Assembly: GCA_963668025.2 (NCBI GenBank)
Contig: CAXXTH010000006.1
Coordinates: 54,179 to 118,178 of the forward strand
Source of the DNA: Candidatus Hydrogenedentota bacterium
Lineage (GTDB): Bacteria > Hydrogenedentota > Hydrogenedentia > Hydrogenedentales > SLHB01
Direction of reading: 5' to 3'
Length of the DNA: 64,000 nucleotides
The position numbers and the translations under genes are program-made. Positions 5,255 to 57,094 of this stretch are shown one piece after another; position 1 is the stretch's first letter; each line of letters opens with the position of its first letter. Under the pieces are notes generated by a model that saw only the letters and a program-made list of their open reading frames with translations, searched no databases and was not told the DNA's origin.

Positions 5255-5274
5255 CAATGGCTGGAAATACTAGT

Positions 5275-34508: not shown

Positions 34509-34527
34509 TGTATCCCGCTTGTATCCC
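34509..34527. promoter_or_regulatory. Putative integrase arm-type sites, left end of element 1
   Basis: TGTATCCC x2 with 11-bp period. The same pair occurs at 53510-53528. Confidence 0.7.
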
Positions 34528-35198: not shown

Positions 35199-35765
35199 TT
35201 AGAATGTGGGTGGTGGCTCACCGAAAAGACCCAGATAATCCCCGCGAAATCCGGCAGGGATGTCCTTTTCGTATTGCCAATAGGCAACAATTTGATGCAC
35301 TCGGTTCATGTCGATGTGGTGGGAGTCGAGCATCAAACGCATGAGCGCCAGTGTGTTCATAGCTTCGAGTTCATAGTCCCCTGCCAACTTGAGCATATCC
35401 TGATCGTCCGTCACTACCGGTATGCCGAGTGTGTAAGCTGTAGCCAGAGCGCGAACATCAACAGGAGACACGCGAAGCCCTTCAGTACGTGCATGATTTG
35501 ACATATAATCGTAGATTCCACGTATTTCTTTACGCTGTTGGCGAGACAAAGGCAGAGGTATCTTACGATTCGCAACGTACTCAGTATTATCTACCCAATG
35601 GAACTTGCGACGCAACCGGGGATTCCTGCTGAACTCGGTTTCAAAGTCAGAGATGACATACAGGCAATAGCAATTTTGACCAAACTGTTGGCCTAATAAG
35701 GGGTGAACGCTTCTAGCTAAACGGAAGTAGGCGTTGCTATCGAGGAGAATCGAGGTCCGCGCCAT
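35199..35765 (-). CDS. PIN-domain protein (putative toxin/effector)
   Basis: 'ILLDSN', 'SPVDVRALATA', 'VVTDDQDM' PIN acidic motifs. Abuts the upstream HTH-IrrE gene. Confidence 0.8.
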   Translation of the reverse strand: MARTSILLDSNAYFRLARSVHPLLGQQFGQNCYCLYVISDFETEFSRNPRLRRKFHWVDNTEYVANRKIPLPLSRQQRKEIRGIYDYMSNHARTEGLRVSPVDVRALATAYTLGIPVVTDDQDMLKLAGDYELEAMNTLALMRLMLDSHHIDMNRVHQIVAYWQYEKDIPAGFRGDYLGLFGEPPPTF

Positions 35766-36893
35766 TCATCGCAACTCCTCGATCACCCCTTTGGCATCTA
35801 GAAGCGGGAGTTGCAGAACTGTTTCCACAAATCCGGTAGAGACATCCGTCTTCTGTATGTGCTTCTTTAACACATCGAAGAAAGGACTTTGAAACATATC
35901 ACGCGCCACGTCCATATACTCTTTCGGAGTCGGCGGAAGCTGACGGAACAACATCTCGCTGACGCTCGTGAACTCTTTATTGAAGTTGGTGGACGCGGCA
36001 TGAATGGACTGTCCTGCATCCACACAGTCTAGGGCGTGCGCTCGAGCATATGCTTGCAGAGCTAAATTCACAGTTGTAGGGGAAATGCCAAATTCGCGCG
36101 CGATGTCTTTCAGGAGGTTGATGCGGACACCCTCACTTCTTGCCTTGCTGACTTTCGCGTAAGCTGTGGCAGCACATGTTTCGGGAAAAAGAAGCGCTTG
36201 GGCAAACCCGTCCGCAAAGTCTTCCGCCTCATCATCCCGGAGCTCTGGAGCGTGTACATGGCCCAGTTCGTGCGCCATCCAGAATTTAAAGTCGTGGATG
36301 TTGCTGTCCAAATTCAGATACACCCAGGTCGTCATCGACTCCGGCAAGTAGATATGCAGTGCATTTTCGTGATGCTCTTTGTGGCCCCAGAGCACCGGAA
36401 CGATTACTGTATTCAGAGAGGTGAATCGGCCTATTAGGTCACGGAACTGCACGGGACCGTCCTGGCTTACTCCAATGTCTTTGCGAATCCTGCTGGCAAC
36501 ACGCTGTAAGTACTCGTATTCGTTGAGCGGTTCACGCAGTGTCGCCGGACGTGCAAGTGTATCGAAGGGGAGAAAAGGAGCGAGCGCACCAAGCAGAACA
36601 CCCATGTGTTTTGCTCGTTTCACATGTTCTGCTGTCGTCTTGTGTCCACCTTTGCGCCGGAATGCGATTACAGGTTCCATGGGGTCATGGTGTTCGATGA
36701 CGAGTTGCTGGAAGCTCAGCTCCAGCAGCATGCCTAGCTTGAGTAGTTTGTCCGGACGCGGGAAATCCTCACAGGAGAACCATTTCGTTACAGCGGTGCG
36801 GCTCACTTCAATCTGTTTTGATAGACTGGCCTGATTCAAACCATGTGCCTGCATGGCTTGCTGTAGATTCTGGATGTTAAGCACTTTTTTCAT
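35766..36893 (-). CDS. XRE-HTH plus ImmA/IrrE (DUF955) zinc metallopeptidase fusion
   Basis: N-terminal HTH 'NQASLSKQIEVSRTAVTKW', 'IAFR', 'FWMAHELGH', 'EDFADGFAQALLFP'. Confidence 0.88.
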   Translation of the reverse strand: MKKVLNIQNLQQAMQAHGLNQASLSKQIEVSRTAVTKWFSCEDFPRPDKLLKLGMLLELSFQQLVIEHHDPMEPVIAFRRKGGHKTTAEHVKRAKHMGVLLGALAPFLPFDTLARPATLREPLNEYEYLQRVASRIRKDIGVSQDGPVQFRDLIGRFTSLNTVIVPVLWGHKEHHENALHIYLPESMTTWVYLNLDSNIHDFKFWMAHELGHVHAPELRDDEAEDFADGFAQALLFPETCAATAYAKVSKARSEGVRINLLKDIAREFGISPTTVNLALQAYARAHALDCVDAGQSIHAASTNFNKEFTSVSEMLFRQLPPTPKEYMDVARDMFQSPFFDVLKKHIQKTDVSTGFVETVLQLPLLDAKGVIEELR

Positions 36894-36899
36894 GATTCA

Positions 36900-36928
36900 A
36901 GCCTATCAGTAATGTAAAGTTTTGTCAA
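36900..36928 (-). promoter_or_regulatory. Sigma70-like promoter predicting a leaderless mRNA
   Basis: TTGACA-17nt-TAGGCT-6nt-ATG(36893). No RBS. Confidence 0.65.
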
Positions 36929-37143
36929 CTTTATTCTTGGGAGATATTAGGTGCTATTCGAATCGATGGGTGCAACCGGTATCTGGCTGGTGGAGAGAGG
37001 AGAGGTGGGTGTGAACACGTGGCGCGCTTCGCAGGATGCCCGTAGAGCAACGCGGGCGGTTTAGCAGTATGAATGGATGACTTGATGGCAGATCGTAGCA
37101 GGGCGGCCAGCACGTAAACGAATTCGCGGGGTTCCGGGGCATG

Positions 37144-37473
37144 TCAGGCACCGGGATCGGCGGGGGTGTCCTGGGTGCGGGGCGTGAAGTTCACGCAGGT
37201 CTCGCATTTGCTGCATACCGGCGGCATGAGTCCGGCGCGGGCCAAGTCACCTATCACCGCTGCTTCGATGTACCGCCGCTCGATTTCCGCCGTGATGCGC
37301 TCGAGCTCGGCTTTTCCAGCGGGACGGCATAGGGCCACTGCGGCGGCCTGCACGTGGCCATATCCCGAAAGCTCGGCGGCCTGCTTGATGGTCATGCCCA
37401 ACGCGCGATACATGGCCAGCAGGTGCAGCCTCGGGCTCGCTGGGGCGGGTTTATAGGGCGGTTTATTCGGCAT
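37144..37473 (-). CDS. Small-terminase-like HTH protein with C-terminal CxxCxxC
   Basis: 'TIKQAAELSGY...A...L.RP' resembles the TerS N-terminal HTH. Homolog starts at 56632. Confidence 0.55.
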   Translation of the reverse strand: MPNKPPYKPAPASPRLHLLAMYRALGMTIKQAAELSGYGHVQAAAVALCRPAGKAELERITAEIERRYIEAAVIGDLARAGLMPPVCSKCETCVNFTPRTQDTPADPGA

Positions 37474-37900
37474 GGTGGGTGTCTCCTTCCAATGCATCGC
37501 GCTTGATAGCCTCGATGCTCCTGCTATCGTACGGGTGATGTTCTTCCCCTGAGACCGTCGTTACACGGCTCCGCTTCTGAAGCATGCCTGAAGGGTGGCG
37601 GTCCAGCACCGTTTCCGCCGCTCGCAACCGCACGCTTGCCGGGGCGCTGGGGTCGTTCAAAATCGCCTCGATGACGGCCAGGGCTTGGCGGAGCATATCG
37701 TCAAGCTGCCCCATGCTCGAGACCCTCAACATCAACGCGGAGTCTTCAAGCTGCCGCCGGTACTCGGCCACGGCGGGCTTTTCGCATATGGCGTCTATCT
37801 GCGCAACAGTCTTACCGGTCGCAGCGGCCACGGCGCGGCGATTGCCTCCGGTGGCGTATAACAGCCTGGCCACGTGTTTATGCCATGCGGCGGGCTTCAT
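37463..37900 (-). CDS. Small-terminase-like protein (HTH plus 'VRLRAAETVLDR' helix pair)
   Basis: HTH, 'ALAVIEAILND...VRLRAAETVLDRHPSGM'. Homolog at 56622-57059. Confidence 0.6.
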   Translation of the reverse strand: MKPAAWHKHVARLLYATGGNRRAVAAATGKTVAQIDAICEKPAVAEYRRQLEDSALMLRVSSMGQLDDMLRQALAVIEAILNDPSAPASVRLRAAETVLDRHPSGMLQKRSRVTTVSGEEHHPYDSRSIEAIKRDALEGDTHHAE

Positions 37901-38115
37901 CGCGGAGCCTCCCATTGCTGCTCGAACCACTCCGCTTCCAACTGCTGCAAGAGACGCCGTTCATGAAGCATGGCGTTTCTGGTCATCGCCAACTGCGTCA
38001 AGACAATCGGGTCGCCCAAATCGTCCTTCAGTTCAGTGAAAATCTCCATCATGTCTCTGTCGTAATCTCGTAAACGCTCCTGCGAGTTGATGATTTCTTT
38101 CGTGATACTTTTCAT
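37897..38115 (-). CDS. 72-aa helical hypothetical protein
   Basis: GGAG RBS, ATGA overlap with the next gene. Disrupted homolog in element 2. Confidence 0.65.
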   Translation of the reverse strand: MKSITKEIINSQERLRDYDRDMMEIFTELKDDLGDPIVLTQLAMTRNAMLHERRLLQQLEAEWFEQQWEAPR

Positions 38116-38220
38116 GCAATCGCTCCACGTAACGTCCACTTTACATATCGTGAAAAACACTGGGTTTGCGGGTCGAGCCTGGGGGTGATATACACCTGGG
38201 GTCAAACACCGGTGCGAAAA

Positions 38221-38613
38221 TCACGCCCCTTTTGCATTCCCCTCGGCTCTCGGCTGCCCAAACATTCCGCTCGGGTGCCTGTCCAGCAGCGCAATAACAA
38301 TTTGCAGCTTTATTCCGACGGGCGTTTCCGGATCTGACAACGTCTCATCGAGTTGAGCCAGGCCGAGGTCGATTGCCTCGTTCAGTCGCGTAACCGTGGC
38401 GGCCCAAAATGTCTCACCAGTGGCGCGTAATTCGCGTATCTTCTCCCGGATGGGCCAGTGCTGGAGTATCTGTTCCACCTGAGATGGTTCCAGTTTGACC
38501 ATGTGTGCGATCTCGAACTCGCTTAGCTGATAGTTCATTGCCGCCAGTTGCGCGATTTCTCGATGGACAGCAGGCGCGTCCTCGAAGTGTGCGTACTCGA
38601 AATTACTGTTCAT
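38221..38613 (-). CDS. Small-terminase-like protein, paralog of 37463-37900
   Basis: Shares 'LxDP..P....L......LDRHPSGM'. Homolog at 59134-59526. Confidence 0.6.
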   Translation of the reverse strand: MNSNFEYAHFEDAPAVHREIAQLAAMNYQLSEFEIAHMVKLEPSQVEQILQHWPIREKIRELRATGETFWAATVTRLNEAIDLGLAQLDETLSDPETPVGIKLQIVIALLDRHPSGMFGQPRAEGNAKGA

Positions 38614-38652
38614 ATGCAGGCTCCTTCCAAATGTTTTTTTGCTGTGAGAACG

Positions 38653-38760
38653 AGTGACGTTAGTGACGCAAGTGACATGACTTTCAGTAAAGTCCCCTTA
38701 TGATAGAGTTTCTAAGGAGAGTTTATGGAATGTTGTGTCACTAGCGTCACTAGCGTCACT
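38653..38760. other. Putative replication origin (iterons) of element 1
   Basis: AGTGAC x3 at 9-bp spacing (38653, 38662, 38671) and inverted GTCACT x3 (38737, 38746, 38755) flank an AT-richer core right after the primase stop. Confidence 0.75.
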
Positions 38761-40192
38761 CATCGGTTAATATTCCTAATCCAATCCATAAGCGCTTGCC
38801 GCCGGTGGCGCGGTATTCATCGAAACCTTGCGATTGAAGATACTCGCCAAACCGGCGTTTGCTTACGGCGGTTTCACCGGCATCTGCGCACCATTTCTCA
38901 TATGCTGCATATACATCCGCTTTTAGCGTTTGGCAGTGGGATTGTCGCAGACAACACTCCGCCAGAAAGCGGCCTACGCCATCCTCATGTAGCCGATATT
39001 CGGATGTTGCGGCGGTCACTTCCTCGGGTGCTTTTAAACCTTCCGCCAGATAGGCGCATGCGCCTTCGACAAGCCAGTTCAAGACGCCCTCAGCCTCGTT
39101 TGATATAAGACGCTCCTTCAATTGACCGTCAACGCGGTCCTCAGGAATCGTCTGGGTGAAAGGAATAAGGCGTACGCGACGCCAGATGGCTAGGTCGGTT
39201 CCTTTAATCTTAGGGCGATCATTTGTGGCAAGCCACAGCACGTGAGTAGGCTCGAACTGAAACGGCGATTGATACAATTCGCGTGCTACAATTGGGTCTC
39301 CGCCACACATAGCTTTGACGCGCGCCTCGTTCAATTTATGGCCTTCGCCGGTCTCTATACTCGTCAAGAACCGTAGGCCGTACAACTTCGCAAGGTCGGG
39401 GCTCGGGCCATTGCTTGGGCGGTTATCGAGAAGTAGCTCAGGAGGGCATTGTCCTGCGTAGCCATCCCCCATAATTCGCTGGAGCACGTTCAAGAAGGTG
39501 GACTTCCCGTTGCGGCCTTTGCCAAAGCAAATGAAAAACACCTGCTCCGCCGATGTTCCGAGTAGGCTATACCCGGCGGCCTTTTTCACGAAATGGCGCA
39601 AGGCTGGGCTGGGGAAAATATCCTCCAGGAATCGCTCCCATGTCGGGGCGGGCTTTCCTTCGTAATAATCGTACGGGATGCATTTCGTGATGTAATCGCT
39701 CTTGCCGTGGTCTAATACTTTAGGTAACGAACCTTGCGGATTCCCGAAGTCTAGCGTGCAATTTTTGAAATTAACCTTCAATGGCTGGACGTCGAATTCG
39801 GCCACTGTCATAGACATATACGCTTCTGAGATTTTCAAAATCGCGGACACTGTGGCGGCGGTCTCACACTTACGGGCAAATGCTAGGAGCCAACTGACAA
39901 GTTGAGTCGGTTCACCGTCTCGGGCGTACTGGCCTGCCAAGTCCCTGAAGTGTTGGCCTACGCATTCGATACACATCGAACGCACTTGCGCCTCGTTGCA
40001 CGCCCAGTGGGTGCCCGTCCATGCCAGCCAACCCCAGCCGGAAACGAATCGCACATAAGAACCGCATGCGTTCGCAAACACGCGCGATCCACTGTACTCA
40101 GTGCATAATTCACTGCGTCGGAACTCCATAGAGTCGGTGGGGCCAGGGCGCTTGCGGCGGCGGGCTTGTTTTAGATCAATGGCCTCAGCCAC
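38756..40192 (-). CDS. P4-family/D5-like primase-helicase (SF3)
   Basis: 'WLAWTGTHW', Walker A 'GKGRNGKST', 'GGDPIVARELY', 'ATNDRP', 'AIWRRVRLIPF'. Confidence 0.92.
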   Translation of the reverse strand: MAEAIDLKQARRRKRPGPTDSMEFRRSELCTEYSGSRVFANACGSYVRFVSGWGWLAWTGTHWACNEAQVRSMCIECVGQHFRDLAGQYARDGEPTQLVSWLLAFARKCETAATVSAILKISEAYMSMTVAEFDVQPLKVNFKNCTLDFGNPQGSLPKVLDHGKSDYITKCIPYDYYEGKPAPTWERFLEDIFPSPALRHFVKKAAGYSLLGTSAEQVFFICFGKGRNGKSTFLNVLQRIMGDGYAGQCPPELLLDNRPSNGPSPDLAKLYGLRFLTSIETGEGHKLNEARVKAMCGGDPIVARELYQSPFQFEPTHVLWLATNDRPKIKGTDLAIWRRVRLIPFTQTIPEDRVDGQLKERLISNEAEGVLNWLVEGACAYLAEGLKAPEEVTAATSEYRLHEDGVGRFLAECCLRQSHCQTLKADVYAAYEKWCADAGETAVSKRRFGEYLQSQGFDEYRATGGKRLWIGLGILTDE

Positions 40193-40448
40193 GGGGCTCG
40201 TCCTTGAATGGATCTGCGGGTGTCACACGGTTCGAGTCGATGAAAGCCCGCAAGTCGGCGAGATCGTATCTGATCGCGCGACCCACCGTAACGTGTGCAA
40301 TATTGATGTGGCCTGGAAGGTAGCCCTCAAAGCGCCTTTTTCTAAGATAGTTCGAAGAAACCCCCAGGATTTTGGCGGCTGTTTTCGTATCGACTAATTG
40401 CGGGCTGTTCAGATTGTCTGACATATTCAAGCTCCTAACGTTTGCCAC
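40185..40448 (-). CDS. AlpA/excisionase-like HTH protein
   Basis: 'LVDTKTAAKILGVSSNYLRKRR...GRAIRYDLADLRAFI'. Start may be 40424. Confidence 0.8.
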   Translation of the reverse strand: MANVRSLNMSDNLNSPQLVDTKTAAKILGVSSNYLRKRRFEGYLPGHINIAHVTVGRAIRYDLADLRAFIDSNRVTPADPFKDEPRG

Positions 40449-40526
40449 AGGCGCTTTGTGTGCCCATTCATTACGTGGAGATTGCCAGACCTGAGTCGGA
40501 AAGCCTATAGCGCCATTATGTGGGCA

Positions 40527-41627
40527 TTATGCAGATTGTTTTGACGAACTAGATATGTAATATCCAGCGATTTCAGAATTACCCCTGCTGGGAGGAATGT
40601 TAACTCCATGCTTGCGAAGGTTCGCTACTGTACGAGACACACTGGATTGATCCAGCGATTTATCTGAATCGTCGGCATGAGCTTCGTCATAGTGCTTAAT
40701 GATGTCTACATGTGTGATTGGGCCATGGTCCGCTATCATTTTGCATATGAAGCTTTCCCTTTCCGACAGCGGCGTTCCGTCTGGTGCGAATCTGTCTCCG
40801 GGCTTCCACTGGTGCGGCGCGGCGGCCTCCTCCGACTCCTGTGCCACGGTGGCGGGCGCGGGGAGCGGTGCGGGTGTGTAGAAGTCGCTGAGCCATTGAG
40901 TGTGCAGGATGCACCGCTGTATCCATGCTACCGCCTCACTGGTACGGATACCATCATTGACGATCTGCGGCCCCGTCGATAGCAGTTCACGATAAGTGTC
41001 GGACTGGTTGATATTCGCAGTTTTTGGGGCTCCTTCAAGTGAATGGTAATATTGCCACGGATCCACAAGCACCTGGCATAGGGTAACGATCTCTAATACT
41101 GTCCACCATGCACGGTCCGTCAAGTATTTCTCAAACCACGTCTTAATGTGTGCCAGAACAATGGGCGGCGGCGCGGGCATATCCTCGGGTTGAGGCGTAT
41201 CAAACCATGCAGGAAGTTTTTGGCCGGACGCTTCAGCCCACAAGATGAAGTCTGTCTTTAAGGTGAGTACCCGCAGATGAGAAATGATGGGCAAACTTGG
41301 ATTAATGGCAGCCCGCTTGTGAGCGATTAACCAGCGGGCGGCGGCGTCGAATTCGGGCGCTTCCCACAAAAGGGCATCGGGTACGTTGTCGTAAATACAT
41401 GCCCGTAAATGAGGAGTTGAAAGCAGATCTCGAAGTACGAAATGAGGAACGAGTGTTTCTTTTCTGGGGTTCTGTTTAGGGGTATCATCTGGATTTTCCA
41501 GCACCAGCCGCTCCTTGTGAAGCATTCCCGTGAAAAGGACGAGGGGAATAGGCTTTTCCCGGAGATGAAAACTATTGTATTCGGCAATGGTTGGATCTAA
41601 GTTTTCGGCGGTGCGTTTCTTTGGCAT
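40527..41627 (-). CDS. Hypothetical protein with C-terminal winged-HTH
   Basis: 'LSERESFIC...DQSSVSRTVANLRKHG...GYY'. Confidence 0.65.
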   Translation of the reverse strand: MPKKRTAENLDPTIAEYNSFHLREKPIPLVLFTGMLHKERLVLENPDDTPKQNPRKETLVPHFVLRDLLSTPHLRACIYDNVPDALLWEAPEFDAAARWLIAHKRAAINPSLPIISHLRVLTLKTDFILWAEASGQKLPAWFDTPQPEDMPAPPPIVLAHIKTWFEKYLTDRAWWTVLEIVTLCQVLVDPWQYYHSLEGAPKTANINQSDTYRELLSTGPQIVNDGIRTSEAVAWIQRCILHTQWLSDFYTPAPLPAPATVAQESEEAAAPHQWKPGDRFAPDGTPLSERESFICKMIADHGPITHVDIIKHYDEAHADDSDKSLDQSSVSRTVANLRKHGVNIPPSRGNSEIAGYYISSSSKQSA

Positions 41628-41742
41628 TGCGTGATCCCTTCTGTGGGTCGAGCGGCAGGCTTTCAGCGGGATCACTCTTACTCACCCGCCATCTCGTGCG
41701 CCGGGCCGTTGCAATCGGCTACCAGCTACCCAAACTAATTAA

Positions 41743-43112
41743 GGGTGCTCCCTCAATATGATAACCTCAATTGACCCCGTGGCGGGCCACGTGTTGCCAG
41801 AACTGGTCCCAACGGCCCTCGGTCATCTCCAGCGACCTGAGCGCGATCACCGCGCTCGCGCCCGCTTCCTTCCACCGCATCCCGGAGCATGCCAGGCGTT
41901 GCTTGATCAGCGTCTTGCACGCCGCCTCCGTCACTCCGCTGCCGATGGGAAGGCGCTCCGCCGTGTGCCGCCAGTATTGCATCTTCGAGCGGTGATTGCC
42001 GAAGTAGGTGATCGCCTTGCCGAGTTCCTCGCGGCAAGCCTGGGCGCGCACGCTTGGCAAGCTCGCCTTCATCTCCTCCAGCAAGCGTCCGGCTGCGCCC
42101 CTCGTGTGCTTCAGCCGGTGACTCCAGTCCGCCTCCCACTCCCGGCGGCGCGCGCCATGACCGTGAATCGCCTCCGCCGCCTTCCCCACGTATTCCCGCG
42201 CGTGATAGAAATCCAGCATCTGCCGGTCCGTGCGCGGCGTCAAAAACTTCCAGTTGTCCGGCGCGCCGTCGGCCAGGCCGATATACAGCGCCGCCGGGTG
42301 CCTCGCCCTCACGCGCTCCACCTCGCGGCCGAAGCGCTCGAGGAAAGTCTGCTTGCCGTACTCGGGCGATGCGCCCGCGTAGATCGTGTGCAGCCGCTCC
42401 CCGTCCTTGTCGTACAGGCTGATGGACCCGCACATCGCCTGACGCCAGCCGTCCTCCCTGAGCAGCATGCAGGTGCCGTCCAGGCCCACGGCCACCGACG
42501 CGACCGGCCTGTCCAATTCCGGCAGCTCGTACTCCCACGTCTCCTCCCTGGCCTGCGCCAGGGCGCCCACAAAATCGCCGATCTTCTTCACATAGTCGCG
42601 CGAGATTGCGCGGCCTGTCGACTCGAGCAGGTCGCGGCGCATGACATCGGCGCCCATGCGGGAGTATTTTCCGCTGACGATCCGGGCGTAGCGCGGCGTG
42701 GCGTTCATGACCATTCGCGCGTCCCGCTCCAGCGGGCAGAAGGTGCGCCCGCCCGTGGCGGTGTTCTGGTAGACGTGCCGCTCGACGCGGACCGGGCCGT
42801 GGGGCGTCTCGTAGGTCTGGCCGAAGCGCCCCTTGGTTTTGAAGGTGGTGGCGCCGACGCGGATGGGCGAGCCGTCTGTGTCGAAACGGGCCAGGGCCTC
42901 GGCCATGACTGCGCGCCCCACCCCGTTCAGGGCCTCCTGGACCGCCTCCTCCATATCGAGCATCGAACCACGCAGCCTCAGCGAGAAACTCACCTCGAAC
43001 GTGTCGCCGTCGCGCCTTGTCACCATCGCTGCCATCGGTCTTCCTCCGTTAAGGGTCCGGCATACTTATCGACCCGACACGAGGATTTCTTTAGCATTCT
43101 GCGGGAACACCC
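41743..43112 (-). mobile_element. ISKra4-family insertion sequence
   Basis: Terminal IRs GGGTGCTCCCTCAATATGATAA and GGGTGTTCCCGCAGAATGCTAA. 8-bp target duplication CTAATTAA at 41735-41742 and 43113-43120. Confidence 0.9.
41767..43035 (-). CDS. ISKra4-family transposase
   Basis: 'VGLDGTC', 'LADGAPDNW', 'LDFYHA', 'PIGSGVTEAACKTLIKQRL..SGMRW'. Confidence 0.92.
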   Translation of the reverse strand: MAAMVTRRDGDTFEVSFSLRLRGSMLDMEEAVQEALNGVGRAVMAEALARFDTDGSPIRVGATTFKTKGRFGQTYETPHGPVRVERHVYQNTATGGRTFCPLERDARMVMNATPRYARIVSGKYSRMGADVMRRDLLESTGRAISRDYVKKIGDFVGALAQAREETWEYELPELDRPVASVAVGLDGTCMLLREDGWRQAMCGSISLYDKDGERLHTIYAGASPEYGKQTFLERFGREVERVRARHPAALYIGLADGAPDNWKFLTPRTDRQMLDFYHAREYVGKAAEAIHGHGARRREWEADWSHRLKHTRGAAGRLLEEMKASLPSVRAQACREELGKAITYFGNHRSKMQYWRHTAERLPIGSGVTEAACKTLIKQRLACSGMRWKEAGASAVIALRSLEMTEGRWDQFWQHVARHGVN

Positions 43113-43127
43113 CTAATTAAATTGTAT

Positions 43128-49613: not shown

Positions 49614-50938
49614 TGCGCCACCTCTACTTCTTCCCCGTTCATGAGGATGATGGGATTCCCGCTCGGAGACCTGCCGATGACCGGGTTTTTCTTGATGTAT
49701 TGAGCCGTCGGAGTGGGTGCCGCCGCTTGCGTGGGAGTCGCCGACTGCTGTGTCGCTGCCGGTGCTGCTGCTGGCTGCTGTGTCACTGCCTGCTGCGACG
49801 TGGCCGTCATTTGCTGGGCTTCCTGGCGTCGGGCGTCGGGCAACAAGTAATCCGATGAACCACCCTCAATAAGCCCCAGTGACACCAGGTCGTATAGCAC
49901 GGCGGGGTCTTCCACACCCAGCAGTGGCATGGCTTGCTTTGCGAAGGCGTATGGAATTTTTACTGTGCCATTCTCATCTACGGCGGCAATGTCACCGTAA
50001 GCAGTTGCATACAGCTTGCGTAATCGGTTCATGACGGCGTCTGCCGGTACAGGCTTCCGAACTCCACCCGTGCCCGTGGGCTTGCTCGGCCCGATGTCCT
50101 GAACCACCTTGCCGGTCTGGTCGAGCACTGCGGTGTGGTATTCTGTTACGCCATTCACCTGCACAGGGAAGTTATCCCGCACCACGTTTTTCGTTATAGC
50201 TGGCCCGGCGGGCTCGAACGTCCCATCATCATGCACCCAGCCAGAGCCGGATTTGGTCGTGCCATCCGCGTCCTGGTAGTAAACCTCATCCATCCACTTT
50301 GGGACCGCCGGATTCTCGTATACCGACGACACCGAGCCCGTATCTGGATTGAACTGCGCAACATCGGTGCCCGGGGCCACATTGAACGGCTTCGACATCT
50401 GCGTGCGGAGTTTCCACGCCTCGTGCTGCCGCTTGGACTCCGCTTCCTGCGCATCGTAGTCAGCCTTCATCTGCGCGGTTTGCGCTTCGATCTTTCGTTC
50501 ATCAAGGTGGTTTTGCAACTGTGTCTTATACAACCTCAACTCCTGTTTTCGGTCCTGGGCTTTCTCGAACTGTGCGGTGCGTTCCTGCTGTTGCTGCGCT
50601 CGTTGCGCCGCCGCATCCTCGTTCGACTGCTGAACCATATTCAGTGTGGCCGTGGTCTGTTGGGGAGACATCCCCATCACATCCTTAGCGCCCAAATTCG
50701 GGAGCGTGCTGGGCGGTGGCGTCATCTGCTTGGTCAATCCGAATAACTGCGCCATCTGGCCGACAAAGCCATTTCCATACGGATTCGGCGCAAGTTCAGG
50801 GCTCTCCATCTCCAGCAGTTGCGCCTCGATCACGTTCGGCGGCGTGCCCTCGGGATATTCAAGCGTCTGTCCCGTGCTCGGTATTCTGACCTGTATGCCG
50901 CGCCCTACTCGTGGAATCATCATCGATATTACCTCCAT
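49610..50938 (-). CDS. Q/A-rich coiled-coil protein, putative DNA-transfer/ejection protein
   Basis: 'QVRIPSTGQTLEYPEGTPPNVIEAQL' N-terminus, long Q/E/K coiled coil, 'NPDTG' motif. GTGA overlap with the giant gene. Confidence 0.55.
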   Translation of the reverse strand: MEVISMMIPRVGRGIQVRIPSTGQTLEYPEGTPPNVIEAQLLEMESPELAPNPYGNGFVGQMAQLFGLTKQMTPPPSTLPNLGAKDVMGMSPQQTTATLNMVQQSNEDAAAQRAQQQQERTAQFEKAQDRKQELRLYKTQLQNHLDERKIEAQTAQMKADYDAQEAESKRQHEAWKLRTQMSKPFNVAPGTDVAQFNPDTGSVSSVYENPAVPKWMDEVYYQDADGTTKSGSGWVHDDGTFEPAGPAITKNVVRDNFPVQVNGVTEYHTAVLDQTGKVVQDIGPSKPTGTGGVRKPVPADAVMNRLRKLYATAYGDIAAVDENGTVKIPYAFAKQAMPLLGVEDPAVLYDLVSLGLIEGGSSDYLLPDARRQEAQQMTATSQQAVTQQPAAAPAATQQSATPTQAAAPTPTAQYIKKNPVIGRSPSGNPIILMNGEEVEVAQ

Positions 50939-51044
50939 TCAGAATGAATTTACTCCGCGAATATTGTAGCGCGTATCGGCCTTATACCAAGCCCCTGGAA
51001 AATGAGCGCGCCCAAGCATGTGGACGCGCTCTCGGTGGGGGAGG

Positions 51045-51416
51045 TTAGGCTTCGGCTGGCTGTGGCTCGGGGATAGATGCCTCTAAGGCGAACGCCAAAG
51101 GAATATACGCACCTAGGTCCGCAAGACGTGCAACCTCGATGGATTCACCGTTCACCCCTCGGGCAACGAGCTTGCCGCCTTCGCTAAACAGCAGCATCCC
51201 CTCTGGCGTTTCAAAGTATACGAACTCTCCTTCATCCCAGATCTCCTTGAGCATGAGCGGTCCTGTCTCGACCTCGATAATTTTGTGTATGAGTGCCCGG
51301 GCCTCGATGGCGGGCCGGAGAAAGTGAAGTGAGTCGCCATGGTGCTGCTCGCCCAATGCGGCAAGATAGGCCTTTTCGGCCAGGCTGATTTCTCGTACCG
51401 GCATCATGGTGTTCAC
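51045..51416 (-). CDS. Hypothetical protein
   Basis: Co-oriented, with GTGA overlap to the upstream ORF. Confidence 0.6.
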   Translation of the reverse strand: MNTMMPVREISLAEKAYLAALGEQHHGDSLHFLRPAIEARALIHKIIEVETGPLMLKEIWDEGEFVYFETPEGMLLFSEGGKLVARGVNGESIEVARLADLGAYIPLAFALEASIPEPQPAEA

Positions 51417-51667
51417 TCCTTTCCCGTTTTAGAACTGTCATGCAATGTAGCTTGCGCGATATCGAGTTGTGTCCCACAATACGAGCAGAATTGGAATGGC
51501 GGTCCCATCGGCATCAGCTTGCATCCGCACGCCGGGCAAAGCTGGTTGTAGAAGATGTCGTTCTCCATGTCGGGGCACCAACCGTCCTTGTCTAGCCAGA
51601 TTCGACTGAAGTCGAGTACATAGGCGGGCGGATTGGTAGGGACAGGTTTGGTTTCATTGGTAGGCAT
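51413..51667 (-). CDS. Small Zn-ribbon protein
   Basis: CPACG...FCSYCG. AAGGA RBS. Confidence 0.6.
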   Translation of the reverse strand: MPTNETKPVPTNPPAYVLDFSRIWLDKDGWCPDMENDIFYNQLCPACGCKLMPMGPPFQFCSYCGTQLDIAQATLHDSSKTGKE

Positions 51668-51737
51668 GATGCGTTTTCCTTACGGAGGCGGGTATACTTC
51701 TACGGACGGCGGAGCCTTCAAATCCGCTGCTCGCATC

Positions 51738-51773
51738 GGCCTCTGGGTGCTTGCGGCACTCAGGGGCCTTTTT
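51738..51773 (+). terminator. Intrinsic terminator on the strand opposite to the element's genes
   Basis: GGCCTCTGGGTGC-TTGCG-GCACTCAGGGGCC-TTTTT. Confidence 0.7.
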
Positions 51774-51905
51774 ATGCTTTCACCGGCCACGATGGCCGGG
51801 TCATGCCGTTATGTATTCTCGTCCCTGCCCAAGCCGGATGGAGCCGCCAAGGGTCGGGCGCAGGATGTCGGTTAAGCCTTTGATGGGCATGGCTAGGAAT
51901 CCTTT

Positions 51906-52166
51906 CTATGATAATGGAGGGAAAAGCGCGCGTGTTTCTTTCATGGTGCGTGGGGGGCGTGGCTTCTCGGACTCATCGCCTGCCAGCCACTTCAAGACGC
52001 TTACGCCTGATATGCGTTCGACGGAATAGCCTGGAATTTGCACGCGGTGCAGGTGGCCCATGTCGGCGAGGGCCTTGACGGCTCCGTGGCGTATGCAGAG
52101 CCTGCGGGCCACTTGAAGTGTGGTGTACAGGCGGTCTGGTTCTATGGGATCTCCGATGATCTTCAT
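51906..52166 (-). CDS. Excisionase-like HTH protein
   Basis: 'RLYTTLQVARRLCI...V..L...G.L...RISGVSVLKWL'. Directly after the integrase. Confidence 0.7.
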   Translation of the reverse strand: MKIIGDPIEPDRLYTTLQVARRLCIRHGAVKALADMGHLHRVQIPGYSVERISGVSVLKWLAGDESEKPRPPRTMKETRALFPPLS

Positions 52167-52218
52167 GTTTCATCCTTTCCGGTTTGTTACCAAGCCTTGA
52201 CTTCGTATGGGTCAGACG

Positions 52219-53484
52219 TTATGCCCCTTGCTCCTTCGCGGTTCCGGGGAACGCCAGTACGTTATCTGTGGGCGTGTCCAGCAAGGCCACGGCTTCCCGC
52301 GTTGCTCCGGGAGCCAGGTGGGCATACCGTTGCGTCAGGCTGATGTTGCTATGGCCTAGCAGAGTCATCACGGTGTAGAGGTCCACCCCTGACTGAACCA
52401 GCTTCGATGCGAACGTGTGGCGCATGTCGTGAAACGTGAATCCCTTGATACCGGCATCGGCAAGCAACGTTTCCCATGCTGAGTTGATATCATGCATGGC
52501 CTCGCCGTCCGGCCCCTCGAACACAAGCCCCGTAGTAAGGCCTGTGCATGCCTGCCACCCCTTGAACGCGGCCATGGCGCGGGCGTTGAGTGGGATGCGG
52601 CGGACAGTGCGAGTCTTGGCAAGGCGGGCCTCGATGGTCAGCGTAGCGGCCTCGAAGTCTACGCTCTCCCATGTCAGGGTCATCAACTCCCTGCGTCGAA
52701 CGCCGGTGTTCAGCACGATCTCGATCATGGGCTTAACATAGTCGGCATAGGAACCGTCGAGGGAGACCGGTGCAGGGTAGTTCCGTTTTTCGCACCATTC
52801 GCGGTGTGATTCGCGGGCCTCTCGAAGGCGGGTCTCTCGCTTATCGATGGCCTCAAACAGTGCGGCCTCTTCTTGGGGCGTCAAGTAGCGTACGCGGTGC
52901 GGGTCCATTTCTTTGGCTTTGAACTTCGCTAACGGATTTTCTGTGATGAATTCACGGGCCACGGCGAAGTTCAGTACGGTCTTGAGATAGCGGCAATACC
53001 GGGAACCGGCGCGTGGCTTGCCTTCTTTGTTGAGGCGTGCGCGGACCTTCTCCACGGAGAACAGCTTGATTGAATCCAGGGGCTTGTCCATGAGTTCACC
53101 GAAGTTGGCCCGTATCGCGCGCATCTCTTCAGCCAGGGATGGTTTGCCTGCGTTCACGGTCTCGTATTCGGTAAGCAGGTCGGCCAGTGTGGCGATGTGA
53201 CGCCGGGCCTCCTTGCGGGCCTCAGCAGGGTCTTCGCCACGTAGAGCATCGGCCAGCAAGCGGCGTGCGTGGTCACGGGCTTGGACAAGCGTCAGTATGG
53301 CGGCGTCTCCCACCTTGAGCATGACGCGCTTGCCGTCTTCGCGCCGATACTTGATGTAGTACGTCCGGCTTCCGCTCGTTTCGGTGCGTACGAGGAAACC
53401 TGACATCTCGGAATCGAACGCATCGAAGCGCTTAGCGCCGGGCTTGAGGGTATCCACGGTCTTCTGCGTAAGCTTCGCTTTCAT
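52219..53484 (-). CDS. int: Tyrosine integrase with N-terminal arm-binding domain
   Basis: 'KLTQKTVDTLKP...FD....GF.VR..SG.RTY', catalytic R (TGVRRRE), K, HDMRH, LLGH, RY. Confidence 0.95.
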   Translation of the reverse strand: MKAKLTQKTVDTLKPGAKRFDAFDSEMSGFLVRTETSGSRTYYIKYRREDGKRVMLKVGDAAILTLVQARDHARRLLADALRGEDPAEARKEARRHIATLADLLTEYETVNAGKPSLAEEMRAIRANFGELMDKPLDSIKLFSVEKVRARLNKEGKPRAGSRYCRYLKTVLNFAVAREFITENPLAKFKAKEMDPHRVRYLTPQEEAALFEAIDKRETRLREARESHREWCEKRNYPAPVSLDGSYADYVKPMIEIVLNTGVRRRELMTLTWESVDFEAATLTIEARLAKTRTVRRIPLNARAMAAFKGWQACTGLTTGLVFEGPDGEAMHDINSAWETLLADAGIKGFTFHDMRHTFASKLVQSGVDLYTVMTLLGHSNISLTQRYAHLAPGATREAVALLDTPTDNVLAFPGTAKEQGA

Positions 53485-53509
53485 GGCAGCGGTTCCTTTG
53501 CTGGGATTC

Positions 53510-53528
53510 TGTATCCCGCCTGTATCCC
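53510..53528. promoter_or_regulatory. Putative integrase arm-type sites, right end of element 1
   Basis: TGTATCCC-GCC-TGTATCCC, matching 34509-34527. Confidence 0.7.
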
Positions 53529-53656
53529 AGCGAAAAGATACCACTAGCAACATCAGGTGTCAAGAAGAATCTATAAATATGCAAAAAGCCCAATAAAATC
53601 GACCTATTTTCAGTGTATGACTGTATCGCATTGTTACTTGGAGAAGGTGCATTTTT

Positions 53657-53770
53657 CTGCTTTGGGAGCAGGAGGCCGAGAGTTCAAATCTCTCCGCCCC
53701 GACCATTTAAAGCCTTTAACCCCAATGACTTATGGAAATGGGTTCTTGGGGCTTTTTCTTTGGCCCCGCT
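53657..53770 (+). repeat. att junction: 114-bp exact direct repeat of 34393-34506 (49 bp of tRNA-Pro 3' part plus 65 bp of shared element end)
   Basis: CTGCTTTGGGAGCAGG...CGACCATTTAAAGCC...TTGGCCCCGCT is identical at both positions. Confidence 0.95.
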
Positions 53771-54066
53771 CTGTGGTTCCGCTGTGGTTCCATACGTCGG
53801 GATTTCGAGCCGTTTCAGGGCTGCATGGCCGGGCGGTGATGGCGGGCAGTTTGGTGATGGCCAGCATGGGTGCGGGAACGTGTGAATAAGGGTGGCAGGC
53901 AACAGAAAGGGTGGCAGACAACAAAACACGGAAGTCGTATGGTTGCGACCGCCATCGGGCGAGTCTCTAAACATTAGGCGGCCCCCGGGCAAGCCTAACC
54001 CGGCCTCCTCTGCGGCAATCCCGGACACATTGCAGAAGCAGCCCACAGTCACGATATCACGGACGC

Positions 54067-54285
54067 CTAGATTTCCGCAATGATCCCGTCGTCGGATACC
54101 TCGAACAACGCCATGCCTTGCCGTCCAGCTTTATCCGCCCCGTGCAGGTACACCCGCAGCCCTTTTTCAGTAGGCCTCGTGCATATGGCGAAGACTCGAG
54201 TCCAGTTATAGCGATACTGAGCCACAGTGGACGCGGCATAAGCGCACTCAGGAATGCTGCCATCGTATCGAGGATAAGCTTTCAT
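54067..54285 (-). CDS. 72-aa hypothetical protein (homolog of 34694-34912)
   Basis: 69 of 72 residues identical by eye. Confidence 0.75.
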   Translation of the reverse strand: MKAYPRYDGSIPECAYAASTVAQYRYNWTRVFAICTRPTEKGLRVYLHGADKAGRQGMALFEVSDDGIIAEI

Positions 54286-54581
54286 ATTCGTCTCCGTTTG
54301 GAATCATAGCATGGGACAGGACACTCGCCACGCATGGTAGAACGAATGAAGCCATGGAACAAGCGCTCAGCGTGAAGCCTGGTTGACATGTGGGATGCTT
54401 GATGGTGTCGTCGCTTATGTCATGGCGGCCGGGCGGCGGCGCGATGATGTATGTGCGCATGCGTGCAAGGGGGGGTGGCAGGGGGGATCAGCGACACCCC
54501 TCTGTATAGCGTTAGACCCTCACTCGAAAATTCTGGTGAAAACGGGAACTGTACCATGCGGGAGGTACAGTTTGTGTTGGC

Positions 54582-54613
54582 AAAAAAGAAACCCGCGTCC
54601 ACCGGGGCGCGGG
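54582..54613 (-). terminator. Terminator of the TAC operon
   Basis: Minus strand reads CCCGCGCCCCGGTGGACGCGGG-TTTCTTTTTT. Confidence 0.65.
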
Positions 54614-54657
54614 GCCATTGGGTATGAATCCCAATGGGAGGGGATGCAAGTCGATTA

Positions 54658-55158
54658 CTATTGATTCAGAGCAGTGTTTTTTCCGGAAGATTTTTTTTTA
54701 GATGCTCGTTTTGAACTGGGATTCTTTGCTGGCGTCACATTCTTCAAATCGAAAAGCGGTACAAAAAAGGGACCAGCAAGTGAGAATGAGGTCGCCTGGA
54801 ATATCATACCTCTTAGGAAACCTAACAGATTGGCCGCTGGTGCCGTGCTTGCGAAGAACTCCTTCTTTTGTTCATCAGAAACTTGTGGATCAGCCCCATA
54901 TTTTCCTTCAATCACAACATGAAGGGAATGTATAACCGAATTGAAGGCCTCCTGGAAAGCCTGTAGTTCTATAATGACAGTGCAGCTCATTGGATCTGAA
55001 TCTATGCTATGAGAAACACTAATCGAGTTGGTGGGTATATTTTCCTCGTCAACTTTCCCGACTTCGTTGATTTCAAGGGAAAGGATACGTATAGACAGCA
55101 ATGAAAACGGACTTACAGCAAACCTTAATTCCAGCGTTTCAGACGGCAGTTTTTTCAC
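54658..55158 (-). CDS. SecB-like chaperone of a toxin-antitoxin-chaperone module
   Basis: 'LHVVIEGKY...FFASTAPAANLLGFLRGMIFQATS...PFFVPLFDL' fits the SecB fold. Third gene of a RelE-HTH operon. Confidence 0.72.
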   Translation of the reverse strand: MKKLPSETLELRFAVSPFSLLSIRILSLEINEVGKVDEENIPTNSISVSHSIDSDPMSCTVIIELQAFQEAFNSVIHSLHVVIEGKYGADPQVSDEQKKEFFASTAPAANLLGFLRGMIFQATSFSLAGPFFVPLFDLKNVTPAKNPSSKRASKKKSSGKNTALNQ

Positions 55159-55606
55159 CGAGTGCTCCTTTCATTTTTGGGACGCCTTTCGTATCCAGTT
55201 CCCACTGACGACGCAATGCAGCTCTACTTTGAGTTGCAGGCGCCTTTTCATGTCGTTCAAGAGGAAAGTTGGAAGTCAAGATATTCTGTTTCATATTTCG
55301 GAATTGGAATATTCTTTGTTCCCTTTGTCTTGCCTCTTCGTGGGAAATAAGGTCTATCCCAACCCATTCAGCACCAAGCGCAACGGCTATGTTTGCAAGG
55401 CTACTAAGGGTCAGATTTTGTTCGCCACAGATTTTTTTAGCGACATCTGCTTGTGACACTCCCAGACTCCCCGCCAGTCCTTTCTGAGTTATCCCGTGCC
55501 TATGCATGTATCTTCGGATAAGTCCTGCAAATGTGCTTGCGAGGTGTTCTTCGACATATTCCGGCGACGCATTCAATTCCGCATAAAGCTCATCGAAGTA
55601 GTTCAT
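55139..55606 (-). CDS. HigA-like XRE antitoxin with C-terminal extension (ChAD-like)
   Basis: 'GITQKGLAGSLGVSQADVAKKICGEQNLTLSSLANIAVALG' followed by a ~65-aa charged tail. Confidence 0.8.
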   Translation of the reverse strand: MNYFDELYAELNASPEYVEEHLASTFAGLIRRYMHRHGITQKGLAGSLGVSQADVAKKICGEQNLTLSSLANIAVALGAEWVGIDLISHEEARQREQRIFQFRNMKQNILTSNFPLERHEKAPATQSRAALRRQWELDTKGVPKMKGALGEKTAV

Positions 55607-56025
55607 GGCTGTGTTTCCTCCTGCTCAAAGGGTATTCCCGTCAATGACTTCAGTTCAGACATCCTCTTTCGGGCTTCTTTGATCGCGCTTGACTGGAGCT
55701 CAACATTTCCCGCTTTAAGCCATGTCTTACAGATTATGACCAGGTTCTTTCGTGGTTTGTCATAGAACCAGAACAACCGGAACCCTGCATTGTGTTCTTT
55801 GAACTCATATAGCCCGCTTCCTAAAGCCTTGAATTTCCTGTCGTCCAACGCCTCACAGCCGTATTCCGCCGCAACTTTCATCGTGTCCATTATTCTACTG
55901 GCTGCGCTAGGGTTTGATTTTTTGACCGTTCTAATAATTTTCTCAAAATCACACCTTGTGCCGTCCACGACAGTGGTGATTGTCAGCTCAGTGCCAACCA
56001 CAACCTTTCTGAGGCATATGCTCAT
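55603..56025 (-). CDS. RelE/HigB (Gp49-like) toxin
   Basis: 'KFKALGSGLYEFKEHNAGFRLFWFY...LVIICKTWLK...IKEARKRM'. Confidence 0.8.
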   Translation of the reverse strand: MSICLRKVVVGTELTITTVVDGTRCDFEKIIRTVKKSNPSAASRIMDTMKVAAEYGCEALDDRKFKALGSGLYEFKEHNAGFRLFWFYDKPRKNLVIICKTWLKAGNVELQSSAIKEARKRMSELKSLTGIPFEQEETQP

Positions 56026-56054
56026 AGTATATAACCTTTAGGTTATGTTTTCAA
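56026..56054 (-). promoter_or_regulatory. TAC promoter with a palindromic operator in the spacer
   Basis: TTGAAA-17nt-TATACT. ATAACCT-TT-AGGTTAT palindrome at 56031-56046. Confidence 0.7.
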
Positions 56055-56632
56055 TTCCTTTGTCTCGATTCCTTTGTCTCGATTGCAATCTTCCTGGCGG
56101 GCCTACAATAACACAAGTGTGATTTACGGTGAAGCGATGGCCTGGCGTCAAAGAAAATGAACGTAAGTCGCAGGAGCCGCATTAGGCTTCGCAGGATGCC
56201 CGTAGAGCAACGCGGGCGGTTTAGCAGTATGAATGGATGACTTGATGGCAGATCGTAGCAGGGCGGACAGCACGTAAACGAATTCGCACCGTCTAGGGGC
56301 ATGTCAGGCACCGGGGCGGCGGGGGTGTCCTGGGTACGGGGCGTGTAGTTCGCGCACTGTTCGCAGCGGGAACACGGGCGGGGGAGTAAACCGGCCTTCT
56401 GCAGGTCGGAGACGATCGCGATTTCGAGATACCGCTGCTCGATTTCCGCCGTGATGCGTTCGAGTTCGGCGCGGCCAGCAGGGCGGCTTAAAGCCTGGCT
56501 GGCGGCCTGTACGTGTCCGTATCCGCTCAACTCGGCGGCTTCAGCGATGGTCTTGCCCAAACCGCGAAACAAACACAGCAGCTTCAGCCGCGGGCTCGCT
56601 GGGGCGGGTTTACTGGGCGGTTTATTCGGCAT
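56051..56632 (-). CDS. TerS-like HTH protein (homolog of 37144-37473) with C-terminus extended by a 1-bp indel
   Basis: Aligns with the element 1 protein to 'TPRTQDTPA', then reads on through the conserved non-coding block. Confidence 0.55.
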   Translation of the reverse strand: MPNKPPSKPAPASPRLKLLCLFRGLGKTIAEAAELSGYGHVQAASQALSRPAGRAELERITAEIEQRYLEIAIVSDLQKAGLLPRPCSRCEQCANYTPRTQDTPAAPVPDMPLDGANSFTCCPPCYDLPSSHPFILLNRPRCSTGILRSLMRLLRLTFIFFDARPSLHRKSHLCYCRPARKIAIETKESRQRN

Positions 56633-57059: not shown

Positions 57060-57094
57060 TGCCTCCTAAACCATTCCTCTTGTAGGTTCTTTAA

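Follow-up and report, generated by a model that had tools for sequence, protein, structure and literature searches.

Tandem satellite-like islands of a Hydrogenedentota bacterium appear to share a variable slot for defence-type cassettes

Do two neighbouring mobile elements hold different defence genes at one and the same exchangeable position? The question is raised by a stretch of 64,000 nucleotides (nt) from a Candidatus Hydrogenedentota bacterium (NCBI GenBank assembly GCA_963668025.2, contig CAXXTH010000006.1, positions 54,179 to 118,178 of the forward strand), hereafter the window, in which two related elements, called element 1 and element 2 here, lie side by side at a tRNA-Pro gene. 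A sequence-only reading of the window had proposed that homology between the two elements is interrupted from 35200/54573 to 37026/56186, that the interval is an exchangeable slot for defence cargo and a new hotspot, and that its flanks could serve as bait for harvesting further systems. Satellite defence hotspots have been established in P4/P2 and in a small number of further families, most of which come from Proteobacteria and Firmicutes. The locus analysed here would place the same hotspot logic in a satellite-like family with anchors of no known relatives, in a phylum of 135 species genomes.

We find that comparison of the elements supports a variable slot for defence-type cassettes. The arrangement is of a known kind, a hotspot for defence or toxin-antitoxin (TA) cassettes in a satellite-like island as already known for P4/P2 and other satellites, and the element family is new. 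Our best explanation as a whole, namely tandem integrative islands of phage-satellite type at tRNA-Pro with swappable defence cassettes of the TA class in the slot, we hold at a probability of about 70%.

Results

Comparison of positions 32001-41000 with 50501-61500 of the window by blastn gives five colinear matches between the elements: 34393-34606 with 53657-53870 (88.5% identity), 34700-35200 with 54073-54573 (94.0%), 37026-37900 with 56186-57053 (80.6%), 38053-38114 with 58894-58954 (93.5%) and 38098-38389 with 59010-59302 (90.8%). The second and third matches enclose an unmatched interval of 1825 nt in element 1 (35201-37025) and 1612 nt in element 2 (54574-56185), and in MAFFT alignments across both breaks homology is lost and regained abruptly. 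The two methods confirm to the base the stop at 35200/54573 and the restart at 37026/56186 that had been proposed. The left break comes directly after an inverted repeat (35174-35200 and 54547-54573), with which the stop codon of the last gene of cargo 1, encoding 188 amino acids (aa), shares two bases. The right break sits exactly at GCTTCGCAGGATGCCCG; the 23-mer at this edge occurs twice in the window, against 0 occurrences expected from 100 shuffles.

A third element of the same genome, on another contig (C19), has the same right junction. It is a decayed relative whose integrase gene is truncated beside an insertion sequence (IS); it retains a TerS-like gene, a 117-aa gene that is 50% identical and also homologues of the 84-, 123- and 87-aa genes. 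The same non-coding block lies downstream of the 117-aa gene and homology ends at the same nucleotide; the cargo is a 192-aa open reading frame (ORF) that matches PDC-S05 of PADLOC (E value 6.5e-33) and is followed by housekeeping genes (PfkB, SIS, formyl transferase and others). No att repeats of this C19 element were found. In all three elements the right junction reads ...CATCCTGCGAAGC and then continues into three unrelated sequences, so that the junctions are base-exact on both sides in two elements and on the right side in three. The left flank is common to two elements (94%) and the right flank to three, and the gene content between them differs, with three cargoes in three elements, all from one genome and hence a very small sample. 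The proposal of an exchangeable cassette slot within a conserved module of satellite-like islands is strengthened by this third element, in which the same right junction carries another cargo.

The content of the slot in element 1 had been described as a helix-turn-helix (HTH)-IrrE gene with a PIN gene, and this description holds, the PIN match being sub-threshold. The antitoxin candidate is a 375-aa RmrA-like protein (35766-36893, minus strand) with an N-terminal XRE HTH (Pfam HTH_3, E 3.7e-6) and an M78/ImmA-IrrE peptidase domain (Peptidase_M78/IrrE, E 1.2e-5) in which HELGH was read by eye; it matches 13 PADLOC RmrA models with a best E value of 1.6e-10. The toxin candidate is the 188-aa PIN-like protein (35199-35765, minus strand), for which clusters annotated PIN/DUF3368 appear at ranks 11-17 among the look-alikes in the ESM Atlas, and which has the acidic residues D9, E44, D103, D120, D121 and D123 in common with an E. 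coli homologue of 44% identity; a sequence search of it against the PDB gave no match. Both genes recur as a pair on an E. coli IncF plasmid, each 44% identical, in the same order and with stop and start overlapping, and a pair like that of cargo 1 is present in 54 of 5426 complete E. coli genomes. In the single E. coli chromosome examined, the island that holds the pair also encodes two tyrosine recombinases, and the pair is positioned immediately upstream of a type I restriction-modification (R-M) system with RecQ and DprA genes. The RmrA-like protein gave no tblastn match against phages.

These features suggest that cargo 1 is a RosmerTA-like pair of an HTH-M78 peptidase antitoxin candidate and a PIN-like nuclease toxin candidate. 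According to the NetFlax study (PMC10440598), ImmA-domain antitoxins (RmrA) pair with different toxins, the node in question associates with PIN-like domains, and some RosmerTA systems protect against phage. Cargo 1 resembles RosmerTA in its antitoxin, with an N-terminal HTH and an ImmA/M78 peptidase, and in its adjacent, overlapping partner gene. It differs in that the partner matches no PADLOC RmrT model, and for cargo 1 toxicity, neutralisation and defence are predictions.

For element 2 a RelE-HTH-SecB content had been given, and the three genes are as described. The toxin candidate is a 140-aa Gp49/HigB-like protein (55603-56025, minus strand) that matches PF05973 with an E value of 1.5e-6 and 28.6 bits against a cut-off of 23.9; we take this Gp49/HigB family to belong to the RelE/ParE superfamily. 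It is followed by the antitoxin candidate, a 155-aa XRE-HTH protein (55139-55606, minus strand; Pfam HTH_26/HTH_31) with a C-terminal tail of about 70 aa rich in aromatic residues (F100, F102, F114 and W135), a candidate ChAD. A complex prediction with four chaperone copies and the antitoxin tail scored 0.00, which is evidence neither for nor against binding. The last gene encodes the 166-aa SecB-like protein (54658-55158, minus strand). The order is toxin-antitoxin-chaperone and the genes overlap, antitoxin and chaperone by 20 nt.

The chaperone assignment comes from the predicted fold. Only six relatives of the 166-aa protein were found at E <= 0.001 among 1.84 billion representatives, and one of the seven aligned family members hits SecB in Pfam (E 0.031). 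The single-sequence fold was unusable at a pLDDT of 42.1, and the AlphaFold2 model from the seven-row alignment, with a pLDDT of 75.2, was used instead. Foldseek places this model closest to 5mtw, the SecB-like toxin-antitoxin-chaperone (TAC) protein Rv1957 of M. tuberculosis with a HigA1 ChAD peptide (E 4.7e-6), to whose chains it is 12-15% identical in the fold alignment, and next to SecB of H. influenzae and E. coli (1fx3 and 1qyn), with 22 matches at E <= 0.001. In the Atlas, 21 of 30 hits of the protein fall in SecB-bearing clusters, of whose members a minority carries the SecB Pfam domain (12-19% in the three best). A tblastn search of the SecB-like protein against plasmids gave no match.

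Cargo 2 reads as a HigBAC-type TAC module with a HigB/Gp49-like toxin, an XRE antitoxin and a very divergent SecB-like chaperone. It shares with the M. tuberculosis HigBAC TAC (Rv1955-1957) the gene order of toxin, HTH antitoxin with C-terminal extension and SecB-like chaperone, Rv1957 being the top structural match, and differs from it in the strong divergence of the chaperone and in the ChAD role of the tail, which is a candidate one. According to bioRxiv 10.1101/2024.02.24.581848, the E. coli HigBAC (NT1F31) defends against siphoviruses and occupies a lambdoid prophage locus with variable defence content, a placement on a mobile element comparable to that of cargo 2.

Both cargoes are indeed lower in guanine-plus-cytosine (GC) content than their surroundings, as had been noted, cargo 1 being at 50.5% and cargo 2 at 45.6%, the flanks at 56-62% and the genome as a whole at 55.4%. 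Among the 1.8-kb windows of the genome they stand at the 9th and the 1.4th percentile. The cargoes had also been called self-promoted. Promoter-like sequences are present, with TTGAAA-17-TATACT (10/12 consensus) directly upstream of the Gp49-like gene in the scan, and TTGACA-17-TAGGCT upstream of the 375-aa gene, which was read by eye and is absent from the scan listing; we retain the term promoter-like for both, consensus matches being its basis. At the end of cargo 2 a GC-rich hairpin with a T run was read by eye, its loop being too long for the scan rule.

A further context is found after a tRNA-Arg on contig C10 (C10:983557-989858), where the left end and the 72-aa gene that bounds the slot on the left occur for a third time. 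In this remnant homology ends inside the 72-aa gene, at 34886, its N-terminus is replaced, and the gene directly adjoins one for a type I restriction R subunit (REase_I, E 5.9e-40). The C10 locus may be a defence island in which this terminal module has been put to use again at a different tRNA. After the R subunit come an IS200-like Y1 transposase ORF and then a 636-aa HATPase_c_3 protein.

All three cargoes match families with reported anti-phage members (RosmerTA-like, HigBAC-type TAC and PDC-S05), and the PADLOC check of the slot content was positive for the RmrA models in cargo 1 and for PDC-S05 in the C19 element. For the latter family, bioRxiv 10.1101/2024.09.26.614923 describes one representative that cut T7 and T5 plating about 1000-fold. 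In our explanation the slot would hold one self-contained, low-GC cassette per element, of the TA or abortive-infection class. We infer that the cassettes protect the host and the island from phages, through toxin release upon infection. Swapping would take place between islands that reside in or infect the same cell, through homologous recombination within the two conserved non-coding flanks.

The cassettes could instead be addiction (post-segregational killing) modules that stabilise the islands, the slot merely tolerating them, a reading that we consider unlikely. It draws on the classical TA architecture of two of the three cargoes, on a setting of IS-ridden tandem islands, deletable through their shared segments, that would select for stabilisation, and on the indirect nature of the case for phage defence by these very genes. 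It sits poorly with the PDC-S05-like cargo, a single gene without an antitoxin partner, with the E. coli relatives of cargo 1 that adjoin R-M genes and the C10 remnant that abuts the R subunit, and with the anti-phage activity reported for representatives of RosmerTA, HigBAC and PDC-S05. Stabilisation and defence are, moreover, not mutually exclusive roles.

The flanks that enclose the cargoes are conserved beyond their genes. On the left, the anchor of the slot is the 72-aa gene (34694-34912, minus strand; second copy at 54067-54285), of which the genome holds three copies and which has no Pfam, PHROG, NCBIfam or PADLOC match. Between the copies the proportions of nonsynonymous (pN) and synonymous (pS) differences are 0.018 and 0.21, and the gene is hence under purifying selection. 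Its conserved upstream region (34913-35200; second copy 54286-54573) ends in the hairpin at 35174-35200 (54547-54573 in the copy); this non-coding left flank of 288 nt is 93.75% identical between copies and holds a promoter-like site at 34958-34930 on the minus strand, from the consensus scan.

On the right, the anchor is the 117-aa gene (37144-37497, minus strand), delimited by alignments and protein comparison, which has no match in Pfam, PHROG, NCBIfam, PADLOC or the PDB. Its coding sequence is identical at 261 of 356 positions between elements 1 and 2 and at 202 of 354 (57%) between element 1 and C19, with pS values of 0.44 and 0.53, respectively. The ultraconserved non-coding block that follows at the right slot edge (37026-37143; second copy at 56186-56311, third copy on C19) extends about 115 nt past the 117-aa stop. 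It is identical at 111 of 118 positions between elements 1 and 2 and at 110 of 127 between element 1 and C19, and relative to C19 the last ~100 nt show a single substitution and a single 3-nt indel. Both non-coding flanks are better conserved than silent sites nearby (93.75% on the left against a pS of 0.21, and the block against a pS of 0.44 and 0.53), which points to functional DNA sites, recent gene conversion, or both. In our explanation the flanks are probably kept constant as functional sites, with a promoter/operator and a terminator on the left and possibly a packaging or other cis-acting site beside the terS-like genes on the right.

Two other accounts of the block were considered. 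That of a structured RNA was rejected, as the block has no Rfam match and folds no better than shuffles (z +2.9 and +1.5 on the two strands). As for a coding region, one frame is open through the block in elements 1 and 2, and the C19 copy carries an in-frame 3-nt indel; the block is provisionally treated as non-coding, as the ORF starts and the tails in variable DNA differ. The 117-aa gene stops ahead of the block in element 1 and in C19. In element 2 the loss of a single nucleotide just ahead of the 117-aa stop joins the gene in frame to the block, and the fused ORF (56051-56686, minus strand) encodes 211 aa, is called as 193 aa and has a tail that enters cargo-specific DNA.

Next to the 117-aa gene lies a 155-aa small-terminase-like gene (37463-37930, minus strand; second copy at 56622-57059, 145 aa), and beyond it a 130-aa paralogue (38221-38613, minus strand; second copy at 59134-59526). 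The TerS-like label of the earlier reading stands, as the profile of the 155/130-aa family matches the small terminase subunits 6w7t (E 7.1e-5) and 7joq (E 2.7e-4) in the PDB; an LKAAxxxLDR motif is common to the family and to these subunits.

A sequence that matches the last 27 nt of the block at all but two positions, and has the same edge, is found at C10:644774-644800, 65 nt past the integrase stop of a distant island. The integrase of that island is 38% identical to that of element 1 and its D5 helicase 48-71%, and an excisionase-like 129-aa ORF follows. The 27-mer behaves like a portable site.

Could the cassettes be captured by a site-directed process at the block edge, either by a recombinase acting on the terminal 27-mer or by joining of foreign DNA to a terminase-cut end, in place of homologous recombination in the flanks? 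The junction is base-identical in three elements, and the 27-mer with the same edge is found after the integrase stop of a fourth and much more distant element. The block adjoins terS-like genes, and for the P4/P2 hotspots a role of cos ends in exchange has been proposed (PMC9122126). We nevertheless regard such capture as distinctly improbable. The slot has no recombinase gene associated with it, the other end of the cargoes shows neither a repeat nor a common motif, the block is without obvious symmetry or structure, and four copies in one genome could share an edge by descent, while DNA ends at the block are a proposal.

A related and speculative idea, to which we give low odds, concerns the block itself. 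It might be a cos/pac-type packaging site read by the TerS-like proteins of the islands, with the distal edge as the end of packaged or cleaved DNA; cassettes would join there, and the second crossover would fall in the left flank. According to PMC9122126 and PMC13586616, the P4 and P2 defence hotspots directly adjoin cos and the exchange mechanism is unknown. If the idea were true, the locus would be an independent, non-enterobacterial case of the unexplained rule that satellite and phage defence hotspots adjoin the packaging site, and the base-defined junction would make the capture mechanism testable.

The elements themselves are arranged as tandem islands. The integration target is a tRNA-Pro (TGG) at 34364-34441 on the plus strand (ARAGORN; Rfam tRNA 69.2 bits), the 3' 49 nt of which (34393-34441) recur in alignment at 53657-53705. 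This second tRNA-Pro 3' end (plus strand; blastn and alignment) is at once the attR of element 1 and the attL of element 2. Element 1 spans 34393-53705 (19.3 kb), and element 2 extends from 53657 to the end of the window, which is the end of the contig (C6). The att site is followed by a non-coding left end common to the elements (34442-34606, matching 53706-53870), with the related copy after the tRNA-Arg on contig C10. In the protein comparison the two elements share only the 72-aa, 117-aa, 155/145-aa and 130-aa genes. These form a module at the integrase-distal end of both, in the minus-strand order of two TerS-like genes, 117-aa gene, non-coding block, slot, hairpin with regulatory region, 72-aa gene and att.

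Element 1 further encodes a P4-type tyrosine integrase (52219-53553, minus strand; Pfam Arm-DNA-bind_3 and Phage_integrase), a D5_N/DUF5906/Pox_D5 primase-helicase that is absent from element 2 (38756-40192, minus strand; Pfam, and PHROG DNA primase, E 2e-109) and an 87-aa HTH_17 protein that is AlpA/excisionase-like by Pfam and PHROG (40185-40448, minus strand). The replication genes of element 2 are AAA_25 and Toprim-like, in place of the D5-type helicase of element 1. A P4-like set of integrase, alpha-type primase-helicase and AlpA-like HTH gene is present by Pfam and PHROG, and none of the scanned element ORFs matched psu-, sid- or delta-type proteins in these two collections. Integrase, AlpA-like, primase-helicase and TerS-like genes together correspond to the gene complement of a phage satellite with a TerS of its own.

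The least probable alternative, that there is no dedicated slot and that the islands are ordinary mosaics whose sharp edges mark the end of the neighbours' shared ancestry, can appeal to replication modules that differ completely too, to the patchy identity of the shared module (66% amino-acid to 95% nucleotide) and to the C10 remnant, which breaks elsewhere, inside the 72-aa gene at 34886, and it has against it that three elements break at the same right nucleotide, each with a different cargo, that both non-coding flanks exceed the synonymous-site conservation of the adjoining genes, and that each cargo is complete, low in GC and equipped with its own promoter-like site, cargo 2 also with the terminator-like hairpin and T run.

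Outside this genome the flanks are almost absent from public data. Among 5.8 billion clusters, the 72-aa protein has no relative beyond the genome and the 117-aa protein has one, on a contig of 1398 bp. The 117-aa protein has no match in 53 genomes of the family, and in the 134 other genomes of the phylum there are 0 matches to its profile, to the 72-aa protein or to the block DNA. Pattern scans with the 117-aa profile returned none in the genome, metagenome and viral contig collections, a scan with the TerS-like profile none in the genome contig collection, and the block 23-mer none in the metagenome or viral contig collections. The use of the flanks as bait for harvesting systems therefore fails with present data, the 117-aa relative on the 1398-bp contig being the single outside match. 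Of the claim of a new hotspot, the part that survives is a slot in a new element family; recurrence across genomes was not found, the searches having turned up no family member in any other genome.

The TerS-like profile reaches further, with relatives in 13 of the 134 other phylum genomes. Among eight such places inspected, two more distant satellite-like loci (L047 and L048) resemble the window in gene order, with integrase and primase genes upstream of terS; no block-like sequence was found in either. In L047, terS is followed by a 271-aa ORF without assignment and then by a ComM-like Mg-chelatase gene. In L048 (from contig C7 of another genome; 7606-16093 of the oriented locus) it is followed by an otherwise unassigned operon that encodes a Snf7-like protein together with a Vps4-like AAA ATPase; the two would be an ESCRT-III/Vps4-like pair on a mobile element. 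The ATPase also matches PADLOC IetA (E 4.7e-32), for which no partner was found; this is the one strong PADLOC match in the two loci.

Among public sequencing runs, two (X4 and X5) are probably the source data, and one from another sample of the same organism (X6) contains pieces identical to element 1, one of them across the left boundary and the others inside cargo 1. Two wastewater runs (X1 and X2) yielded only contigs of 77-613 nt, one of which, from X1, stops matching exactly at 35200. No new cargo was readable in the public runs, and stretches lacking coverage there carry no evidential weight.

Discussion

Three cargoes at one base-precise junction beside terS-like genes make the anatomy of this locus more telling than the earlier reading had it. 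The closest comparison is with the P4/P2 hotspots (Rousset et al. 2022, PMC9122126), which likewise consist of a few kb of variable sequence flanked by conserved anchors, within a satellite that carries an integrase and with diverse anti-phage and TA systems, and likewise adjoin a conserved non-coding site, cos there and the block beside terS-like genes here. The islands differ from P4 in having no detectable homology to psu, sid or delta, in their anchors, the 72-aa and 117-aa proteins, which are of no known family, and in the number of arrangements, more than 300 in P4 according to the same study against three here.

Phage-inducible chromosomal islands (PICIs) offer a second comparison. With the features generally given for these satellites our islands share an integrase, a primase-helicase module, small-terminase-like genes of their own, a fixed site and accessory cargo at one end. 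Unlike PICIs, they have no recognised master repressor, capsid-morphogenesis or packaging-interference gene; element 1 measures 19.3 kb including an IS and a 2161-aa ORF; their induction and packaging would be predictions; and their host belongs to a small, poorly sampled phylum.

Several observations weigh against our explanation. In cargo 1, the Pfam PIN match of the 188-aa protein has an E value of 0.0039, below the Pfam cut-off, and no PADLOC RmrT model matches the protein; in cargo 2, the 166-aa protein has no match at the sequence level in Pfam, PHROG, NCBIfam, PADLOC or the PDB, including a profile search against the PDB. The slot is not the only variable part of the elements, as no protein similarity was detected between them beyond 38389/59302. 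No capsid-redirecting or helper-interaction gene was recognised in the islands, and their satellite behaviour is accordingly something that we infer. Both elements contain IS insertions and may be decaying, and no copy of the block was found in a resident prophage. In the integrase- and primase-bearing relatives L047 and L048 no confident defence match follows terS, the 418-, 221-, 225-, 309- and 271-aa ORFs there having been scanned against Pfam and PADLOC only. The sample consists of two full slots, one decayed element and one remnant, all related copies within one genome, and with no family member found in any other genome the term exchange is read from a static picture.

The contents of the locus include a very divergent TAC system and a RosmerTA-like pair whose partner gene is PIN-like. 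What makes the locus most useful is that its junction is defined to the base, at a non-coding block that lies beside terS-like genes and is far better conserved than its neighbours. Should the block be a packaging site, it would provide a clean system for asking why hotspots adjoin packaging signals. The value of the flanks as bait is small today, given their near absence from public data.

Other features of the islands and the window

Insertion sequences interrupt both elements. Element 1 carries one at 41743-43115, of which blastn against the genome finds 20 further near-identical copies. In element 2, a DDE transposase (57153-58706, plus strand; Pfam) lies between the TerS-like paralogues, and a multi-copy IS-like pair of 243- and 98-aa ORFs at 60228-61397 is found at many other places of the genome. 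The 517-aa transposase ORF beside the truncated C19 integrase has the same length as the ORF at 57153-58706, length being the one property compared.

The 2161-aa ORF of element 1 (43128-49613, minus strand) has no Pfam or PADLOC match; a fragment of it on contig C18 is 81.5% identical over 319 aa, and in element 1 it is followed by a 442-aa ORF with a weak DUF1501 match. A non-coding segment at 51668-51813, upstream of the 84-aa gene, is 82-93% conserved at C19 and at two C10 sites and is probably a regulatory region common to these islands.

Elsewhere in the window, positions 16911-20205 hold three tandem units of about 1.12 kb that are 61-87% identical and correspond to minus-strand ORFs of 376, 363 and 304 aa, which looks like a tandem paralogous gene family. 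A 53-nt palindromic repeat of the type GCATGGCCGTCCCGGCCATGC / GCATGGGCGAGACGCCCATGC occurs in several copies (558-610, 5273-5820 and 15925-15977), four of them in an array with a spacing of ~160 nt at 5273-5820, and looks like a REP-like element.

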